DNA of 5,887 nucleotides, taken from positions 1-5,887 of the IMG/VR virus record IMGVR_UViG_3300045988_008819, one strand, 5' to 3'. The position numbers were made by a program, and so were the translations under genes. The notes beneath the pieces are model-generated. The model had not been told where the DNA came from. It was given only the letters and a program-made list of their open reading frames with translations, and ran no database searches. Positions 1 to 5,887 of this stretch are shown here, one piece after another. This DNA is from a virus. Every line of letters begins with the position of its first letter. Position 1 is the stretch's first letter.

Positions 1-55
1 GATATTGCACATTCGTGCGAAGGTTTCGTCGCTCTTGCTTTCACCAATGTAGCAG
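1..55. repeat. Terminal direct repeat, identical to 5833..5887; assembly overlap of a circular genome (unit length 5832 nt)
   Basis: Exact 55/55 nt identity between 1..55 and 5833..5887, checked by hand. Confidence 0.9.
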
Positions 56-102
56 TAGCTTTTTGCTACGCTGTCGTAGATGCCGTAGTAATTGTGAATC
101 AT
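1..102 (-). CDS. N-terminal 34 codons of an 80-aa wrap-around ORF (hypothetical protein with a GIY...YIG-like motif); the C-terminal part is at 5692..5832
   Basis: ATG at 102..100 on the minus strand. An in-frame TAA at 117..115 bounds the ORF upstream. SD AAAGGAG sits 8 nt upstream of the ATG. The reading frame runs through position 1 into 5832 with no stop. Translation: MIHNYYGIYDSVAKSYCYIGESKSDETFARMCNIM... Confidence 0.6.
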   Translation of the reverse strand, partial: MIHNYYGIYDSVAKSYCYIGESKSDETFARMCNI

Positions 103-223
103 GTTTTTTCTCCTTTACAGTCGGATGCCGCCCCGCATGGGTTTCTGGCTCAGGTTGATACTCTTCGTTTTTCGTGCCGTCACATTGAACATGCGTTTGT
201 CGGTTTTCATCGGCATTTTCTTT

Positions 224-445
224 CTATGCTTCATTGTTGTACTCCTTTCGCATTAGCTCTAACTGGATGTCGTTTGCCCATTTTTTCATTATCCAGATTC
301 GGTCAATGATTTTATGAGCTTCCTCTTTGTCTGAAATTTTCTTGATTATTTTGTATTCGGCTTCGATTTCGCGGTATAACTTATCCGCTTCCAGCCTTAA
401 ATCTTCTTCGGTCTGGTCTCTTACATTCCATGTTTTGTGTAGCAT
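224..445 (-). CDS. Hypothetical highly charged helical protein, 73 aa
   Basis: ATG 445..443 with SD AAGGAG 6 nt upstream. Same strand and operon context as the neighbours. Charged, coiled-coil-like composition; no TM segment and no recognisable motif. Confidence 0.55.
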   Translation of the reverse strand: MLHKTWNVRDQTEEDLRLEADKLYREIEAEYKIIKKISDKEEAHKIIDRIWIMKKWANDIQLELMRKEYNNEA

Positions 446-447
446 GT

Positions 448-552
448 TTACTCCTTTTCCTTCAGGATGTGGTAAATCTCATCCAGCTTTTCAAGGACTG
501 TCTTAATCAGCTGGATTGCTTCTCGCAGATCCTTGACCTTAATCAATGCCAT
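448..552 (-). CDS. Possible 34-aa amphipathic-helix micro-ORF (MALIKVKDLREAIQLIKTVLEKLDEIYHILKEKE)
   Basis: ATG at 552..550 comes 2 nt after the peptidase stop, with SD AAAGGGGGT 8 nt upstream. Its stop TAA (450..448) lies 2 nt before the next ATG (445). It fills an otherwise unexplained 109-nt gap in a tightly packed operon. It is below the track's length cutoff. Confidence 0.3.
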   Translation of the reverse strand: MALIKVKDLREAIQLIKTVLEKLDEIYHILKEKE

Positions 553-554
553 TT

Positions 555-938
555 TTATACCCCCTTTCTGTATCTCTCTTCACGTACGTCAATATGTGTG
601 AAATTTGTGTATCTGATTACGCCGCCTTGTTCCATGATGCCGTCTGCATATTTTGCGACTTCTTGACTGCTGTGTCCTTTTACTACGATATCGGCTGCCA
701 TCCCTTTGCAGTGGTATGAGTTTGGTGCTCCGTTTACTTTGCTGTTCCAGCTTGGTGTTCTGTATCCGCTGTTTATGATGACCGGTGCATTAAAGTGGTT
801 TCTGATTTTTTCCAGTGTTTCAAGTAGTTCTCTTGCTACCAGCAGTCCTTTCGTTTTGTCTTTGCACTGAAATTCTCTTGCTTTGAAGTGTTCGCTTACT
901 TTTCCGAAGTCTGCTTTTACATAGTTCACGTGCTTCAT
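555..938 (-). CDS. Zn-dependent peptidoglycan peptidase, peptidase M15 (M15_3/VanY-like) family; putative endolysin, 127 aa
   Basis: Family signature in the translation: ...NSGYRTPSWN..., SYHCKGMAADIVV (SxHxxGxAxD zinc ligands), and a distal His in FTHIDV. SD GAGAGGAAA lies upstream of ATG 938..936. A consensus promoter is directly upstream. Stop TAA at 557..555. Confidence 0.85.
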   Translation of the reverse strand: MKHVNYVKADFGKVSEHFKAREFQCKDKTKGLLVARELLETLEKIRNHFNAPVIINSGYRTPSWNSKVNGAPNSYHCKGMAADIVVKGHSSQEVAKYADGIMEQGGVIRYTNFTHIDVREERYRKGV

Positions 939-971
939 GCGGTTTCCTCTCTGCTGCGCGAAGCGCGGCGA

Positions 972-982
972 TTTTTTTTTTT
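972..982. repeat. Homopolymer T11 (A11 on the coding strand) between the -10 hexamer and the peptidase RBS
   Basis: Counted directly: 11 consecutive T. Confidence 0.9.
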
Positions 983-1011
983 ATTATAACAACAAAACCC
1001 GGAGCTGTCAA
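976..1011 (-). promoter_or_regulatory. Perfect-consensus sigma70 promoter: -35 TTGACA (1011..1006), 17-nt spacer, -10 TATAAT (988..983); predicted TSS inside the A11 run
   Basis: Minus strand: AAACCCGGAG-TTGACAG-CTCCGGGTTTTGTTGT-TATAAT-AAAAAAAAAAATCGCC...GAGAGGAAACCGCATG (peptidase). The -35 hexamer sits in the loop of the upstream terminator hairpin. Confidence 0.7.
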
Positions 1012-1021
1012 CTCCGGGTTT
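983..1021 (-). terminator. Rho-independent terminator after the 60-aa ORF: 10-bp stem AAACCCGGAG/CTCCGGGTTT (995..1004 / 1012..1021), 7-nt loop, followed by UUUUGUUGUU
   Basis: Perfect inverted repeat followed by a U-rich tract on the minus-strand transcript, starting 3 nt after the stop codon. Also T-rich on the plus side, so possibly bidirectional. Confidence 0.7.
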
Positions 1022-1024
1022 GGT

Positions 1025-1207
1025 TTATTCTTTTTCGGTGAAATACATTTTTACTGTTTCTACTTTTTGTAGGCTGTACAGCCCCGGGTGCCTGTTTGCG
1101 TAGTCTTCTGCTCTTTGTTTTGCGTATTTTGGTTCTGCGTTTAGTACCAGTACCGTGGTTATGCTGTCGTCAGCTTCAAGTTTTCTGAGTTCGTATGTGT
1201 GTTTCAT
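1025..1207 (-). CDS. Hypothetical small protein, 60 aa from ATG at 1207 (the track shows 63 aa from a GTG at 1216)
   Basis: SD AAGGAAGGTG lies 8 nt upstream of ATG 1207..1205. A near-consensus sigma70 promoter is immediately upstream. A strong intrinsic terminator hairpin sits 3 nt after the TAA stop (1027..1025). No TM segment and no recognisable domain. Confidence 0.6.
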   Translation of the reverse strand: MKHTYELRKLEADDSITTVLVLNAEPKYAKQRAEDYANRHPGLYSLQKVETVKMYFTEKE

Positions 1208-1227
1208 TTTTGGCACCTTCCTTTCTC

Positions 1228-1263
1228 TGATTATATTTTATCATATTTTTCTGATTTTGTCAA
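1228..1263 (-). promoter_or_regulatory. Sigma70-type promoter: -35 TTGACA (1263..1258), 17-nt spacer, extended -10 TGaTAAAAT (1243..1235); predicted TSS near 1228
   Basis: Read off the minus strand: ...AAAAAACTTGACAAAATCAGAAAAATATGATAAAATATAATCAGAGAAAGGAAGG...ATG. An A-tract (UP-like) lies upstream of the -35. Confidence 0.7.
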
Positions 1264-1376: not shown

Positions 1377-1540
1377 TTTTCAACATTTTCAACATAGTTT
1401 TCAACTTTTCAACATTGTTAAACTTTAACACAATAGAGTGTTTCAACAATTCAACAAGTTTTCAACAAATCTTTCAACTAGTAATTATTTCTACTTTTCA
1501 CGTGATAACGTAGAATTATTCCTGTTTTCAACTTTTCCAC
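1377..1540. repeat. Iteron-like array: nine copies of TTCAAC, mostly as TTTTCAAC(A), plus degenerate copies, spaced about 8-12 bp apart
   Basis: TTCAAC occurs at 1379, 1388, 1400, 1408, 1442, 1450, 1461, 1473 and 1527. Variants TTTTCAC (1495) and TTTTCCAC (1533). The 9-mer caacaagtt is also repeated, at 1452 and 1561. Confidence 0.8.
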
Positions 1541-1561: not shown

Positions 1562-1577
1562 AACAAGTTATATTATA

Positions 1578-1628
1578 ATACGTGCGCACGCGTGCGCGTG
1601 TGGCTTTTCGCGTGCACGTGTGTGCGCG
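1578..1628. repeat. GC-rich block of two perfectly alternating purine-pyrimidine tracts (25 nt and 20 nt), including the 14-bp perfect palindrome gcgcacgcgtgcgc (1584..1597)
   Basis: 1578..1602 atacgtgcgcacgcgtgcgcgtgtg and 1609..1628 cgcgtgcacgtgtgtgcgcg both alternate Pu/Py without a break. They contain palindromes acgcgt, gtgcac and cacgtg. Confidence 0.8.
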
Positions 1629-1642
1629 ATTAGAATAATAAT

Positions 1643-1672
1643 GCCCAGTACCTTACTTGATAGGTACTGGGC
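1643..1672. other. Perfect 11-bp stem / 8-nt loop hairpin 29 nt downstream of the rep (VP4) stop codon; candidate terminator or replication-origin element
   Basis: gcccagtacct (1643..1653) pairs with aggtactgggc (1662..1672); loop tacttgat (1654..1661). Confidence 0.6.
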
Positions 1673-1685
1673 TAGGTGACACCGA

Positions 1686-2705
1686 TTATAAAATACCGCT
1701 CTTCTTCGTTTGTTTTTTCGTGACACGCTCTTTGGTCTCTAAGACGGTTTTATAATCTTGATTCTCTAACTGTAGTCTCTTCTGCTGCATTGCGTTTTTT
1801 TGTCGGTTCTGTTTAATTCTCCACAATCTTTGTGGGTTTTCTGCTTCCATTTGTTTTTCATAGTATCTTGGTATTTGTGCTCTTTTTCCGTTGGTACACT
1901 GAATGTAGCCTTGTCGCCAGATTTCTGCCTTGTGTTCTTGATAGTATTTATCTCCTAGACCCGGTTTTAAGCTCATGCAAGCAAATGGTTTTGTTTGCCC
2001 TAGCTCGTAGTATACGTTAGCTTTTTTACCGTCTATTTCGTACATTTTTTTTGTAACGTATCCTGCAACATATCTATATGTTTCTGGAACTGCTTGCGCT
2101 ATCTGTATTTGTCCCATTCCCCACAGACCTTTTAGCCATTCACTGGTATAGTATCCGTTGTGTTGAATCTTGTATAGATTTTCTAGGTCTGTTGGTTTCC
2201 ATCCGTATAGAATCATGTGGTAATGTGGTCTCGCTGTCTGTTCTCCGTACTCACCCGCTACAAAATAGCGTAATTTGCCCTTGTAAGCCTTTCTGAGGCG
2301 TTTTAGAAACTTTTGAATATCCTCATATAGTAAAATCTGAACGCTGCTAGGGCGCTTCTCTCCCGGCTTCCACGTGTATTGTACTTTTCGCATGATTTCA
2401 CCTGTTTTTACTATCATGCCCGGCACGTGGTCATCATCATACGTTAGCGTTATAAACCAAACTTCTTCTTTCGGATAGTCTCGTGCTTCCAGCTCTATGC
2501 GTGTTGTCCAGTCCTCCCTTTGTCTGATTCTGCATCCTATACATTGTCCGCATGGAATTAACATGATCTTTGGATTATACATTAAATCTTCATATTTTAG
2601 CTGTTTCCCGCTCAACTGAGAAAAGCGGGCGAGTGAATATACTCGCCCGCTCTGTTCTCTATCATTCGGGTTGTACAGTCGTATTAACGGCTTGTAGCAA
2701 CTCAT
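1686..2705 (-). CDS. VP4: Replication initiation protein VP4 (rolling-circle Rep, gene A homologue), 339 aa
   Basis: RCR motif I WFITLTYDD; motif II (HUH) RPHYHMILYG; motif III with two tyrosines YVAGYVTKK; Cys cluster CGQCIGCR. SD GGAGG lies upstream. ATGA overlap with VP2. Confidence 0.93.
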   Translation of the reverse strand: MSCYKPLIRLYNPNDREQSGRVYSLARFSQLSGKQLKYEDLMYNPKIMLIPCGQCIGCRIRQREDWTTRIELEARDYPKEEVWFITLTYDDDHVPGMIVKTGEIMRKVQYTWKPGEKRPSSVQILLYEDIQKFLKRLRKAYKGKLRYFVAGEYGEQTARPHYHMILYGWKPTDLENLYKIQHNGYYTSEWLKGLWGMGQIQIAQAVPETYRYVAGYVTKKMYEIDGKKANVYYELGQTKPFACMSLKPGLGDKYYQEHKAEIWRQGYIQCTNGKRAQIPRYYEKQMEAENPQRLWRIKQNRQKNAMQQKRLQLENQDYKTVLETKERVTKKQTKKSGIL

Positions 2706-3523
2706 TTATTTCTTTTTCCTCCTCTATTTTTGCTGAATTTTCCTCCTCCTGATTCAAACGGCACTGTTTTGTCTGTCTTTTCTAGCTGTTTCCATGTTTT
2801 CAGCAAATCTTCAGTTAGTTGGTATGGACTGCTGTAGCTTGTGCTCATCTGATTTCCTACGGCTTCTGCCAACTGATACCATTGTGATTTACTTTCGCTG
2901 CGGTTGTAGTAACTGTTTGGTACGTTGCCGTTTAGTGCTGATACTCCCAGTGCGCTTGATGCTGGCATTCCCATACTTGCGCCTGTGATTGTTGCGCCTG
3001 AGCCGCCCGGTGTGCTTGCTCCGCCTTGCGCGTATGCTAAGATGGGATTGATTCCTGCTTTTCGCATATCTTGAACGGTTCTTTGATATGCTGTATTGCT
3101 CATACGTTCCTGGAACTCTCTGTTTGCTAATGCTTCGGCGCTGTTATATTCCATAGCGGCGTTTTGCTCGATGTGGTTATAAATACCCTGTTGAATTGCT
3201 CCTAATGTGTTATAGCCCATCTGCATTAACATATTTTGACGGTTTGTTTTACTTTGAAAAGCGTTTTGTCCTCCTTGCCATTGATAGTATTTGTTGAGGT
3301 AGTCCATGATTTGCTTGTCGTTTGTGCCGCCCGCGCTCATGGATGTACTTTGCCCTCCGCCTTGGCTCTGGCTCATGTTATTGCCTTGGCTCTGGCTTTG
3401 ACTTTTCTGTCCGTAGAAACTTGATAGTCCGTTTCCAAGAAGTGACATTCCTGTCGTTACGACTTCTGGATGGCTTGCTAGCCATGTTCCTGCACTTGCT
3501 AGCATTGCTCCTAATCCTGCCAT
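2702..3523 (-). CDS. VP2: Minor capsid / DNA pilot protein VP2 (H-protein homologue), 273 aa
   Basis: Gly/Gln/Ser-rich low-complexity N-half (SQSQSQGNNMSQSQGGGQS). Conserved block EFQERMSNTAYQRTVQDMRKAGINPILAY, typical of Microviridae VP2. Sits directly after VP1. Its stop TGA overlaps the VP4 start as ATGA. Confidence 0.85.
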   Translation of the reverse strand: MAGLGAMLASAGTWLASHPEVVTTGMSLLGNGLSSFYGQKSQSQSQGNNMSQSQGGGQSTSMSAGGTNDKQIMDYLNKYYQWQGGQNAFQSKTNRQNMLMQMGYNTLGAIQQGIYNHIEQNAAMEYNSAEALANREFQERMSNTAYQRTVQDMRKAGINPILAYAQGGASTPGGSGATITGASMGMPASSALGVSALNGNVPNSYYNRSESKSQWYQLAEAVGNQMSTSYSSPYQLTEDLLKTWKQLEKTDKTVPFESGGGKFSKNRGGKRNK

Positions 3524-3551
3524 TATAAAATGGCCCGGATTTCTCCGGGCT
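3524..3551 (-). promoter_or_regulatory. Intercistronic hairpin between VP1 and VP2: 7-bp GC stem GCCCGGA/TCCGGGC with GAAA tetraloop, then CAUUUUAUA before the VP2 AUG
   Basis: Minus strand: TAA-AGAAAGGAGGAA-GCCCGGA-GAAA-TCCGGGC-CATTTTATA-ATG. The only SD-like sequence (AAGGAGG) is about 30 nt from the AUG, on the far side of the hairpin. Confidence 0.6.
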
Positions 3552-3562
3552 TCCTCCTTTCT

Positions 3563-5317
3563 TTATAGTTTTTCCAGACCCGGCACGCTATACAGTGGCA
3601 TGCATCGAGTTGTTTTGTTCATTACTCGGATTGCTCCAAAGAATTGCGGTTCATTTTGTACGATTAGTGTCCGTGCGATTTCGGTTTTTCCCTCTTTCAT
3701 CCACTCTTGGCTGAGTGTCGGCACTTCGTTGTAGTTGTCCGCGTAGTGCCAGAAGTCTAGTGTTCCGTCTGCATTGCTTCGCATTTTGCCGCTAACACGG
3801 TTCGGTTTCATGCGGTAGTCTGCCCAAGCTTCCTGATAGCCGAAAGTTTCTTCATCTGTGCTTGTGCCTGTCAGCATGATTTCTTTCTTTTTTACGGGCT
3901 GCTCGCCGATGTTTGCGAACTGCGGGAAATAGTAGTCCAATCTGTCGCTTCGGCTCCAGAATCGTTCAAGTCCCTGTTGATAGCTGTGGTCGTGACGCAC
4001 ACACATAACACCAATTACAAAGCCGTGCTCTTCAAAGCTTTTTGTAAAGGAACTTTCATTGATAGGAGTTACTGACATTGCGCCTGTTTCACCGATTGGT
4101 GTTCCGTTGTTTGCTTCCTGACCGCTTGTCTGTACGATCTGGTTCATGTTGACGTGATAGCGTCCACCGCCTAAATATTCCGGAATCTGAACGGTTTTGT
4201 CGCTGATGCTTACTCCAAACAGTGCTCTTACCTGTTCGCGGTAGCGACTGCCGCCACGTGCCAGCGCTTCATAATAGTGCTGAACTGCAAAGGCCTGGCG
4301 TAACTGGTTGATTGTTGCTGCTTCGATGTTGCTTAGATCTGTTCCTAACCATGCGTCAAAGAAGTTTGCATCATCTCGGCTCATTGTCTGGACGTATTGT
4401 CCATCGATTACTGGTGCTGTGTTTCCGTTGTTGTTTTTGTTTAGGCCGAATTTTGTTCCTTCGTTTGTGAATGAGATGCTTGTGTGATTTACTATTCCGG
4501 TGTTATATTCGTTGTTGAAATATCCTGTTCCTACTTTTCTGTCGGTCAGTTCTTTTTCTGTGTAGGCTCTTAACGGTGCGTTTCCTGTTAGTGCAATTGT
4601 CACTTCCGGCCCGCGCTGAGGATACGGCAGACACGATGAAAAATAATCATGGAAGCGGTTTACAGGTAAACAGTATCCGCCATTTTGTGCGTTCTTTAGA
4701 ATTGTTTCTTCAGAGATTTCGTCTTCTATTGGTCCGCCTGATGCGTATTCTGTACTTTCATCTCCTGTGTTCAGTACTGCTGGGTTTCCTACGTTTTGAT
4801 CTCTAAAAAATTCGTTCCAGATTTTCACATAAGCTCTGACCGGTAGTGCATTGATACTGTATTCTGCTTCTTTGTCTATTTTGATGCTTTTTGCCGGGAT
4901 TCCCATATAGTCCAGAATTGTCCCTTCGTCTGGGTATGCTCTGTCTGGATTAGGCCATATACTTTTGTTTCCTACTATGATTTGTGGTACTGTGTACGTT
5001 TTTGACGGCATCCACGGCTTATCGTCTGCTTCACCCATGAACTGTTTGAAATTGTCCCACAAAATCCGGTTCGGACAGAAGAAGTAATAGAAGTCTATAT
5101 ATGCGTCGTCCATTACAGGATATTTCGGCGTTGTCATTCGAATGATTGCTGCCGTATCTACGCTGAATGTATCACCCGGAAGAACCTCATCAACATAAAA
5201 TGGGATGAGTTTACCTGCATCGAAGGTTGTCAGGATGTTCTGGTCTCGTTTGAATCGTGTTCGGCTTACGTGCGTTTCTGGTACTTGGTTGAAGTGCCTC
5301 TCATTATTCCTGTTCAT
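3563..5317 (-). CDS. VP1: Microviridae major capsid protein VP1 (F-protein homologue), 584 aa
   Basis: The N-terminus carries the conserved gokusho-type motif TTFDAGKLIPFYVDEVLPGDTF. Size and composition are typical of VP1. SD AAGAGGAAAA precedes the ATG. The stop is TAA at 3565..3563. Confidence 0.95.
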   Translation of the reverse strand: MNRNNERHFNQVPETHVSRTRFKRDQNILTTFDAGKLIPFYVDEVLPGDTFSVDTAAIIRMTTPKYPVMDDAYIDFYYFFCPNRILWDNFKQFMGEADDKPWMPSKTYTVPQIIVGNKSIWPNPDRAYPDEGTILDYMGIPAKSIKIDKEAEYSINALPVRAYVKIWNEFFRDQNVGNPAVLNTGDESTEYASGGPIEDEISEETILKNAQNGGYCLPVNRFHDYFSSCLPYPQRGPEVTIALTGNAPLRAYTEKELTDRKVGTGYFNNEYNTGIVNHTSISFTNEGTKFGLNKNNNGNTAPVIDGQYVQTMSRDDANFFDAWLGTDLSNIEAATINQLRQAFAVQHYYEALARGGSRYREQVRALFGVSISDKTVQIPEYLGGGRYHVNMNQIVQTSGQEANNGTPIGETGAMSVTPINESSFTKSFEEHGFVIGVMCVRHDHSYQQGLERFWSRSDRLDYYFPQFANIGEQPVKKKEIMLTGTSTDEETFGYQEAWADYRMKPNRVSGKMRSNADGTLDFWHYADNYNEVPTLSQEWMKEGKTEIARTLIVQNEPQFFGAIRVMNKTTRCMPLYSVPGLEKL

Positions 5318-5699
5318 TGTTTTCCTCTTGTTTCTTTGGTTTGTTTTTTGTGTTTTCCTGCATCTGCTGCAGTTTCATTGCGTTGGCCTGTGCTGTTGCC
5401 ATCATTGCGTGATACTCGTGAATGTCGGTTGGCCACTCCGTGATGTCCAGGATTTCGTCTGTTTTTGTGCTGTCCATCAGACTTTTAGCAAACTGTGGGT
5501 CGAAACTTGCTTTGCGGACGATGTTTTTGATGTCACATTCATCTGCATAGCTTTCGATTTCTGCCTGAATGTCAATCGGTTCAGTTTCGATTAATTTTTC
5601 GTTGCCTTTTTCGTCTTTGCCCCAGACATACTGTTTTCTCATTTTTTCGCCTGGATTTGAAAAGAAGGGCTTGCGCCCTTCCTCGTATCGTTTATTCAT
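5304..5699 (-). CDS. 131-aa acidic protein immediately upstream of and overlapping VP1; putative internal scaffolding protein (VP3-like)
   Basis: ATG at 5699..5697 (MNKRYEEGRKPFF...) lies inside the CATGAATAA that carries the upstream ORF's stop. The ORF ends at TAA 5306..5304 and overlaps the VP1 start by 14 nt. The first 60 codons of the track's 191-aa ORF (TTG start at 5879) are the out-of-frame read of the wrap-around ORF. The protein is small, acidic and helix-prone, and precedes the capsid gene as scaffolding genes do in Microviridae. The product call is positional inference, not recognised homology. Confidence 0.5.
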   Translation of the reverse strand: MNKRYEEGRKPFFSNPGEKMRKQYVWGKDEKGNEKLIETEPIDIQAEIESYADECDIKNIVRKASFDPQFAKSLMDSTKTDEILDITEWPTDIHEYHAMMATAQANAMKLQQMQENTKNKPKKQEENNEQE

Positions 5700-5832
5700 G
5701 CGGTTTGCCCTCCCACACCTTGTCCGGCTCGATGCTCTTAAACTCGCCGGTCTCATCGTTGAAGTTTGCGACATGGTAGCCCTTGTAGTCCTCAGGCGAC
5801 TGCCCAAGGAAGGTCTTTTCGTCCTTTGCCAT
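5692..5832 (-). CDS. C-terminal 46 codons plus stop of the wrap-around 80-aa ORF (continues from 1..102)
   Basis: In-frame continuation AKDEKTFLGQSPEDYKGYHVANFNDETGEFKSIEPDKVWEGKPHE, ending at TAA (5694..5692). The stop lies in CATGAATAA, which contains the ATG of the next gene. This frame is G/C-rich at third positions. The other frame over the same DNA gives an R/S/T-rich junk peptide. The ORF is absent from the track because the window end splits it. Confidence 0.6.
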   Translation of the reverse strand: MAKDEKTFLGQSPEDYKGYHVANFNDETGEFKSIEPDKVWEGKPHE

Positions 5833-5887
5833 GATATTGCACATTCGTGCGAAGGTTTCGTCGCTCTTGCTTTCACCAATGTAGCAG
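5833..5887. repeat. Second copy of the terminal redundancy (same as 1..55)
   Basis: Same as above. Coordinates 5833 onward are equivalent to 1 onward. Confidence 0.9.

Follow-up and report, generated by a model that had tools for sequence, protein, structure and literature searches.

A predicted M15_3 peptidase encoded without an export signal or membrane partner in a gut-type gokushovirus genome

We analyzed a stretch of 5,887 nucleotides (nt), the whole of IMG/VR virus record IMGVR_UViG_3300045988_008819 and called the window below, which is a complete gokushovirus genome of the human/animal-gut type. Our subject was the gene at 938..555 on its minus strand, whose product of 127 amino acids (aa) belongs to the Peptidase_M15_3 family of LAS zinc peptidases. 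The peptidase retains its catalytic residues, has no export device, stands directly ahead of the structural genes, and never occurs together with a small membrane peptide that is found in sister genomes. On balance we favor the reading that it is a horizontally acquired accessory endolysin which would stay in the cytoplasm, have no dedicated holin and reach the murein through a lesion made by something else.

Family and relatives of the predicted peptidase

The peptidase matched the Pfam family PF08291 (Peptidase_M15_3) with 86.5 bits (E = 1.6e-24) across profile positions 2–108 of 108, the curated gathering cut-off of this family being 23.2 bits, and it matched phrog_894, annotated 'endolysin', at 2.9e-37. 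A match to PF05951 was also found (28.9 bits; cut-off 27), and that to MepK was weak (NCBIfam/DUF882-type models). The motifs SGYR (residues 57–60), S74-x-H76-x-x-G79-x-A81-x-D83 and a distal H115 (in THID) are all in place, as are the zinc-ligand triad (H76-x6-D83 ... H115) and the acidic D117 of the H-x-D motif. Alignment of 17 diverse microvirus and tailed-phage homologs showed that H76, D83, H115, D117, R46, R60 and S57 are invariant. An earlier reading of this DNA from its letters (the sequence-only reading) had recognized a 127-aa M15 zinc peptidase by its SGYR, SxHxxGxAxD and distal histidine signatures and had likened it to phage endolysins. The Pfam placement in a peptidase family bears out the first point, and the PHROG match, together with the 46–48% identity to tailed-phage endolysins described below, the second.

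A search of the PDB with the family profile returned 1LBU, the Streptomyces zinc DD-carboxypeptidase, at 1e-8, followed by VanY-type enzymes, ChiX, T5-type L-Ala-D-Glu peptidases and hedgehog N-domains. Residues 42–87 of the peptidase, including H76 and D83, align with the corresponding motif of 1LBU, the best PDB match being a muramoyl-pentapeptide carboxypeptidase. No match to the VanX, VanY or Peptidase_M15 families was found in Pfam or NCBIfam at E <= 0.1, and VanY-type PDB chains matched weakly (E ~3e-3). The AlphaFold2 model was poor (mean predicted local distance difference test score, pLDDT, of 60.3, from a shallow alignment of 27 sequences), which leaves sequence profiles as the support for the fold. 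The ratio of nonsynonymous to synonymous substitution rates (dN/dS) was 0.20, indicating a real gene under purifying selection. The protein is accordingly predicted to be a peptidoglycan peptidase of the LAS/M15_3 type and of the phage-endolysin kind.

Relatives, denoted by L numbers, were collected as 44 IMG/VR genomes through the peptidase and 80 loci through the neighboring open reading frame (ORF) ORF73, plus relatives from GenBank. Among these the gene order peptidase-ORF34-ORF73-ORF39-VP5-VP3-VP1-VP2-VP4 is strictly syntenic. In a large protein database the peptidase has more than 640 homologous clusters (at 90% identity), of which the approximately 120 listed lie almost all on contigs of no more than about 6 kb; some are titled 'MAG TPA: peptidase [Microviridae sp.]'. 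Identity to the window's protein is 75% in KT264792 and up to 91% in IMG/VR genomes. The nearest homologs outside the microviruses (46–48% identical) are annotated endolysins adjoining holins in Vibrio phage D478 and Proteus phage BigMira.

Two divergent peptidase subtypes, about 43% identical and with the active-site strings SYHCKGMAAD and SYHMRGMAVD, occupy one slot on related backbones (L001, L002 and L126 versus window 555–938). This suggests that the gene either was replaced repeatedly through horizontal transfer or diverged fast. The longest contig with a close peptidase homolog (L142, an ENA scaffold of 11,727 nt) consists of two exact head-to-tail copies of one microvirus genome (about 5.8 kb); it represents an artefact of assembly or a concatemer from replication, not a prophage.

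Peptidases of this family have been reported in microviruses before. Roux et al. (2012, PLoS One, PMC3394797) reported from human samples that five Gokushovirinae and six Alpavirinae encode M15_3 peptidases. In their view the gene had been acquired horizontally; they pointed out that its homologs in bacteria and prophages adjoin holins, and suggested that it acts as an endolysin. GenBank gokushoviruses (e.g., KX513877 and KT264792) carry a 'peptidase M15' annotation at the same position, downstream of VP4. With the gene in gut gokushoviruses already published in 2012, the remaining puzzle is the exit route. The sequence-only reading had called the path from cytoplasm to murein unexplained, and this stands: no paper treating it was found in the accessible literature on holin-less microvirus lysins.

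Export signals, membrane partners and the alternating membrane peptide

The peptidase has neither a signal peptide, as had been read from the sequence, nor a signal-arrest-release (SAR) segment: its N-terminus (MKHVNYVKADFGKVSEHFKAREFQCKDK) is hydrophilic, with a maximal Kyte-Doolittle (KD) mean over 17 residues of 0.29, and there is no upstream in-frame extension. ORFs of at least 20 aa were then screened for transmembrane (TM) segments by KD mean over 17–19 aa with a threshold of 1.8. No minus-strand ORF of this size in the genome reached TM-grade hydrophobicity, no conserved hydrophobic ORF was found in the three sense frames of 120 peptidase-bearing loci, and a scan of all frames gave no small TM protein of the phiX174 E type in an alternative frame. 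A holin (a small membrane protein with 1–4 TM segments) encoded with the peptidase was thus found neither in the sense frames of the genome nor as a conserved gene in the 120 loci. The earlier observation that the neighboring small ORFs lack TM segments therefore extends to the sense-strand frames of all these loci, and KX513864 and KT264800, which represent two additional peptidase-bearing gokushovirus lineages, likewise have no hydrophobic ORF.

Tailed-phage homologs are differently equipped. Beyond those with annotated holins, one (L047) is flanked by TM proteins and an o-spanin-like lipoprotein, another (L136) has a 3-TM holin-like neighbor, and a third (L050) carries its own N-terminal anchor. 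As these homologs come with holins, TM neighbors or an anchor, the absence of any partner from the microvirus clade is a real and conspicuous feature.

Two hydrophobic ORFs were considered and rejected. A semi-hydrophobic ORF of 52 aa with a GTG start (1726..1568, minus) was a candidate hidden holin, but only the part encoded by a hairpin at 1672..1643 is conserved, and the hydrophobic tail is truncated in six relatives (L009, L015, L021, L024, L028 and L036); the conserved ORF is the translation of a conserved stem-loop. A very hydrophobic antisense ORF of 129 aa (5205..5594, plus strand), lying over the VP3/VP1 junction, has in-frame stops in 28 of 39 relatives. The plus strand is 38% T, so hydrophobic antisense ORFs arise as a by-product and are not genes. 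Among the genuine proteins of the genome, the Gly-rich N-terminus of VP2 is the most hydrophobic stretch (KD ~1.2–1.8 across relatives).

Dulem viruses, which are lemur-gut microviruses, also encode an M15 peptidase (49% identical). In two of them a non-nested membrane protein of 35–58 aa lies directly after VP2 (2607–2783 in L155, PP511348; 2621–2728 in L158, PP511414), possibly forming a holin-endolysin-like pair with the peptidase within a microvirus.

Genomes which share the backbone of the window and lack the peptidase mostly encode a single-pass membrane peptide of 32–42 aa (e.g., MNVIITVGAGATIIAMCSATFALIVMGIDIVKNWRKNK); that of KT264788 has 38 aa. It has a basic C-terminus, a GTG start and its own slot between ORF39 and VP5, where the window has a 12-nt spacer only, and it is without annotation in GenBank. 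It was located at 4756–4872 in L129, 4545–4661 in L130, 5148–5264 in L132, 4769–4885 in L135, 2290–2391 in L127 and 2265–2363 in L128, and occurs also in L144–L151. When distinct genomes were counted, 86 had the peptidase only, 14 the membrane peptide only, three neither and none both. The membrane peptide was therefore present in 0/86 peptidase genomes versus 14/17 genomes without the peptidase (Fisher's exact test p = 1e-14, uncorrected for phylogeny). In the VP1 tree there were at least two switches of state, with L041 (peptidase), L127 (peptide) and L133 (neither) as sisters.

This alternation is a new comparative observation, and the complementary distribution fits two alternative accessory lysis devices, the membrane peptide being, from its predicted features, a candidate single-gene lysis protein. 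The three complete-looking genomes with neither device (L131, MG945381; L133, MT135259; L134, MG945780) suggest either that the backbone can achieve release by itself or that these assemblies are incomplete or unverified.

The alternation also bears on a different explanation, in which the peptidase is an enzymatic 'amurin' that stays in the cytoplasm and cleaves UDP-MurNAc-peptides, inner-leaflet lipid II or D-Ala-D-Ala, so that wall synthesis is starved, growing cells burst and no holin is needed. The peptidase swaps with the stand-alone membrane peptide and never accompanies it, as expected of self-sufficient single-gene devices, and no export signal or TM partner was found in about 86 distinct genomes. 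Blocking wall synthesis is moreover the traditional mode of microvirus lysis, and the peptidase shares its clan with cytoplasmic VanX and has a muramoyl-pentapeptide carboxypeptidase as its best PDB match. According to a passage in a review (PMC11514776, citing Sohya 2014), soluble cytoplasmic VanX lyses E. coli without a holin by destroying D-Ala-D-Ala. Against this explanation, T5-type M15 endolysins are routinely over-produced in the E. coli cytoplasm, the peptidase is 46–48% identical to tailed-phage endolysins whose pairing with holins implies that those enzymes do not lyse from inside, and its family matches are to M15_3 and DUF882/MepK-type models, not to the VanX and VanY Pfam families. 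Weighing these points we regard an enzymatic amurin as unlikely. If true, it would stand as an enzyme beside the 'protein antibiotics' E, A2 and LysM, and would explain both the presence of a holin-less endolysin-type gene in dozens of independent microvirus genomes and its exclusivity with the membrane peptide.

We also asked whether the small ORFs around the peptidase could supply a partner, as the sequence-only reading had suggested. The 60-aa ORF (1207..1025, minus; 63 aa if started from GTG 1216) has the Shine-Dalgarno (SD) sequence GGAAGGTG 7 nt upstream of ATG 1207 and gave no match in Pfam, PHROG or NCBIfam. It was found in only 14 of the 44 peptidase genomes, in one genome without the peptidase (L128) and beside the peptidase on a distant backbone (L046). 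It is a variable accessory gene, and was rejected as an obligatory partner. Downstream, ORF34 (34 aa; 552..448, minus) starts 2 nt past the peptidase stop and is predicted to form an amphipathic helix with an invariant L-D-x-I-Y-H core, and ORF73 (73 aa; 445..224, minus) is helical with an invariant K-x-W-N-x-R-D-Q N-terminus. ORF39 (39 aa; 234..115, minus) is basic (net charge +12), ends in PMRGGIRL and matches phrog_10695 at 6.5e-11. It is probably a DNA-binding (J/ORF8-like) protein, judging by these features; a small basic Dulem virus ORF at a similar position, there upstream of the peptidase, is annotated 'DNA binding protein'. All four small ORFs are under purifying selection (median dN/dS 0.10–0.23 in 15–45 genomes; 0.23 for the 60-aa ORF, 0.10 for ORF34 and 0.19 for ORF73).

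ORF34, ORF73 and ORF39 are present in every genome of the lineage, including 17/17 distinct genomes without the peptidase, and are therefore backbone genes and no peptidase-specific partners. This disposes of ORF34 and ORF73 in that role, and the suggestion of a partner among the small ORFs is not supported. By TM and amphipathic-helix prediction, which had been proposed for the 34-, 60- and 73-aa proteins, none has a TM segment, and ORF34 is amphipathic, with a hydrophobic moment (muH) of 0.67 at a mean hydrophobicity (H) of 0.03, above the Eisenberg surface-seeking line.

A hidden phage partner was also considered, namely a membrane-active protein without TM segments acting as a non-canonical holin, with ORF34 or the VP2 pilot as candidates. 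ORF34 would be translationally coupled to the peptidase across the 2-nt gap, and it is the most constrained small ORF. VP2 has the most hydrophobic genuine segment, and microvirus pilot proteins make trans-envelope conduits, as is established for phiX174 H. Both genes occur in all relatives without the peptidase, however, and are hence unspecific; ORF34 has a net charge of 0, and its heptad-like pattern would suit a coiled coil just as well; and L046 carries the peptidase on a backbone without ORF34 and ORF73. We consider a hidden partner rather improbable.

Two further observations were made on ORF34. It is the most conserved small ORF, with 88–97% identity where the peptidase has 78–91%. In L128, L129, L130, L135, L144, L147 and L148 its frame (…ILAMLDKIYHAV…) is intact, but no ATG, GTG or TTG codon from which it could start follows the preceding stop. 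This suggests a non-canonical start codon or coupling to the upstream ORF.

Operon position and possible routes to the wall

Two near-perfect promoters, both with a TG-extended -10 box, lie ahead of the peptidase on the minus strand. P1 (1263..1235; TTGACA-17-TAAAAT, 11/12) is upstream of the 60-aa ORF, and P2 (1011..983; TTGACA-17-TATAAT, 12/12) upstream of the peptidase. A terminator-like hairpin (1021..995, minus), with a 12-bp stem followed by TTTTGTTGTT, holds the -35 box of P2 in its loop; it recurs in six relatives (L003, L010, L012, L013, L014 and L017). The two consensus promoters and the terminator noted in the sequence-only reading are thus confirmed. Promoter-like sites in total did not exceed those in shuffled sequence (11 versus 8.8), and P1 and P2 are the only near-perfect ones in the genome. 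In most relatives a promoter site of at least 10/12 lies about 20–45 nt upstream of the peptidase, and in several others 76–114 nt upstream. Relatives without the peptidase have strong promoters only in the gap from VP4 to ORF34, as here. The mRNA leader of the peptidase contains a GC-rich hairpin (970..952, minus) upstream of the SD sequence (GAGAGGAAA); its RNA fold has -8.2 kcal/mol and leaves the SD unpaired, and the same hairpin is also found on the plus strand. A TTG ORF of 63 aa (1011..820, minus) was rejected as a gene: its start codon falls within the -35 box, it runs into the beginning of the peptidase gene, and it recurs in six genomes only.

Downstream of P2 the peptidase, ORF34 (2-nt gap), ORF73 (2-nt gap), ORF39 (overlapping), VP5, VP3 and VP1 are packed closely, with no terminator until a terminator-like hairpin at 3550..3533 (minus), between VP1 and VP2, which is the first such site after P2 and likely marks the end or an attenuation point of the peptidase-led operon. 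The next, at 1672..1643, lies past VP4. From this layout we infer that P2 is the main promoter of the phage and drives an operon from peptidase to VP1. The peptidase is thereby predicted to be the first cistron of the structural operon, set between the main promoter and the ORF34–VP1 block.

The sequence-only reading had envisaged the peptidase and the tiny ORFs as a self-contained lysis module, a transcription unit of its own expressed at a different time from the structural genes. Its starting point, the pair of consensus promoters and the terminator-like hairpin directly upstream, is sound. However, no terminator follows the peptidase, and the genes from there to VP1 are separated by 2-nt gaps or overlap; P1 and P2 are the only strong promoters of the genome, and relatives without the peptidase have the same promoter arrangement. 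For these reasons the peptidase is not a separate unit, P2 serving the whole operon, and the flanking ORFs are backbone or variable accessory genes. A separate module is highly improbable and already contradicted by the sequence. The only monocistronic-looking unit is P1 with the 60-aa ORF and its terminator.

A promoter-proximal position implies early, strong expression, which would suit a non-lytic role: a virion-associated or early enzyme that would breach the wall locally for DNA entry, or other murein remodeling, lysis being left to something else. Consistent with this, the peptidoglycan (PG) hydrolase of microvirus Ebor is found in virions in trace amounts, ChiX of Serratia (chitinase secretion) is a small LAS peptidase with a non-lytic secretion role, and genomes with neither peptidase nor membrane peptide exist. 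Against it, sister phages without the peptidase and with very similar capsids infect all the same, a T=1 gokushovirus capsid would have little spare room, the tailed-phage homologs in PHROG and GenBank are lysis-cassette endolysins and not virion proteins, and the complementarity with a lysis-type membrane peptide favors release over entry. We think a non-lytic role very unlikely.

The reading we favor, a cytoplasmic accessory endolysin with no dedicated holin, would run as follows. The gene would have been acquired horizontally into an accessory slot between sigma-70-type promoters and the ORF34-ORF73-ORF39-VP5-VP3-VP1 block. Its transcript would be that of the structural operon, with the gene as first cistron, and its product would accumulate as a soluble cytoplasmic enzyme. 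From the existence of sister genomes with the peptidase, with the membrane peptide or with neither, we infer a basal release or membrane-lesion function supplied by the backbone, for which the Gly-rich hydrophobic N-terminus of VP2 or an unrecognized soluble lysis factor would be candidates. The peptidase and the membrane peptide would be alternative boosters of this basal release, and the peptidase would meet murein only once the basal lesion exists. It probably depends, then, on a release function encoded by the backbone.

Several points weigh against this reading. A soluble endolysin is normally harmless when there is no membrane lesion, as with lambda R in S-minus mutants. In Dulem viruses and Ebor the PG hydrolase comes together with a small membrane protein, so by analogy a partner may normally be needed. 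The basal backbone function is drawn only from the three genomes with neither device, all of them metagenomic records marked UNVERIFIED, and the mutual exclusivity of the two devices could largely reflect clade structure. A perfect promoter ahead of a first cistron predicts an early and abundant enzyme, which is awkward for an untimed lysin. Muralytic activity and a lysis role are predictions from the sequence, and the fold, at a pLDDT of 60, is a prediction from profiles. Finally, a search of 185,579 species genomes turned up no close copy, and with it no host.

Gut gokushoviruses are among the most abundant single-stranded DNA phages of mammals. If a signal-less endolysin works holin-free in them, either the backbone has an unrecognized membrane-lesion or lysis function, or wall precursors are attacked from inside; if true, either route would extend the known ways in which phages lyse cells and might offer a novel antibacterial principle. 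What this analysis contributes is narrower: it identifies the peptidase as a known, ordinary accessory gene and corrects the idea of its transcription unit. The sister genomes with the peptidase, with the membrane peptide or with neither form a natural comparison set for experiments.

Genome context and comparison with known systems

The first 55 nt of the window (1–55) are identical to the last (5833–5887), so the window is a circular assembly with a true circle of 5832 nt. All recognizable genes are on the minus strand, with the VP1, VP2, VP3, VP4 and VP5 complement of a Gokushovirinae-type member of the Microviridae: the VP1 capsid protein at 5317..3563 (Phage_F, PF02305, E = 1e-134), the VP2 pilot at 3523..2702 (phrog_8742, 9e-102), the VP4 Rep protein at 2705..1686 (PF23343) and the VP3 scaffold (Chlamy_scaf, PF09675). 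A VP5-like ORF of 80 aa, whose homologs carry PF20577 (Phage_ORF5), runs from 102..1 and continues at 5832..5692; as it spans the circle junction, a linear ORF listing misses it. The nearest GenBank records are human and pig gut gokushoviruses with 78–81% nucleotide identity in VP1, VP2 and VP4. An Rfam scan of the window gave nothing significant.

We know of no cultured host for this gokushovirus clade. When the 185,579 species genomes were searched for integrated copies no close relative was found, the best match being 38% identical and lying on a contig of a Christensenellaceae metagenome-assembled genome. TG-extended -10 boxes and strong SD sites on nearly all genes hint weakly, in line with Roux et al., at a bacterial host with Firmicutes-like expression signals.

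The non-coding DNA between VP4 and the peptidase contains several conspicuous elements. The hairpin at 1672..1643, just downstream of the VP4 stop at 1686, has a perfect 11-bp stem and an 8-nt loop. The stem covaries in relatives (GCCCAGTACC, GCCAAGTACC, GCCTAGTACC, GTCCAGTACC and GCCCAGTTCC, each with a matching 3' arm) and the loop, (T)ATCAAGTA, is invariant. On the plus strand the loop reads ACTTGATA, which we take to be the core of the phiX174 origin nick site; about 0.2 chance occurrences are expected per genome. The hairpin may be an origin for the VP4 Rep protein or a terminator. Further along, at 1377–1532 (minus), six exact copies of GTTGAAAA lie within 155 nt of non-coding DNA, a number reached in 0/200 shuffles. 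Of 67 distinct relatives, 63 have the octamer 2–7 times in the gap from VP4 to the peptidase, with hardly any copies in the rest of their genomes; these are iteron-like repeats. In an intergenic region otherwise rich in AT, positions 1581–1626 form an alternating purine-pyrimidine, GC-rich tract (CGTGCGCACGCGTGCGCG ... CGCGTGCACGTGTGTGCG; repeat family D4), and 1290–1345 a second GC-rich palindromic stretch (GGCCGCTGTTGCGCGCTACGCGGCGCAAC...), part of which recurs upstream of the promoter in L004.

Compared with known systems, the peptidases described by Roux et al. (2012) agree with that of the window in Pfam family, viral subfamily and position past VP4, and differ in nothing essential; that paper does not deal with the missing holin, with the place of the gene in an operon or with the membrane peptide of sister genomes. 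M15 peptidases are also common in marine Occultatumvirinae. Microvirus Ebor, of the Tainavirinae, resembles the window in being a microvirus with a tailed-phage-like PG hydrolase as an accessory gene (Gp7, whose activity was verified experimentally; mBio 2025, PMC11980548). Unlike the window, it infects Rhodobacter, belongs to another subfamily, and encodes a predicted membrane protein of 45 aa (Gp1) as a possible holin-like partner.

The tailed phages D478, BigMira and Myduc (the last also a Proteus phage) share with the window a soluble M15_3 enzyme of the endolysin kind with no signal peptide, the same catalytic residues and 46–48% identity. In them the enzyme is neighbored by holin or TM genes and by spanin-like ones, whereas the microvirus has none in any sense frame; close to the N-terminus their enzymes have a C-x-C-G-C-G cysteine cluster that is missing from the microvirus enzymes. 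VanX, a cytoplasmic D-Ala-D-Ala dipeptidase (M15D), is like the window peptidase a soluble protein of the LAS/MD clan with an H-D-H zinc site, but belongs to another Pfam family. With the amurins phiX174 E, Q-beta A2 and M Lys the window shares a small phage genome and the lack of a holin-endolysin pair. Its peptidase differs from them in belonging to a known hydrolase family and in having no TM segment, and nothing here implies that it inhibits MraY, MurA or MurJ; it is the 32–42-aa membrane peptide of the sister genomes that resembles the amurin class in size and topology.

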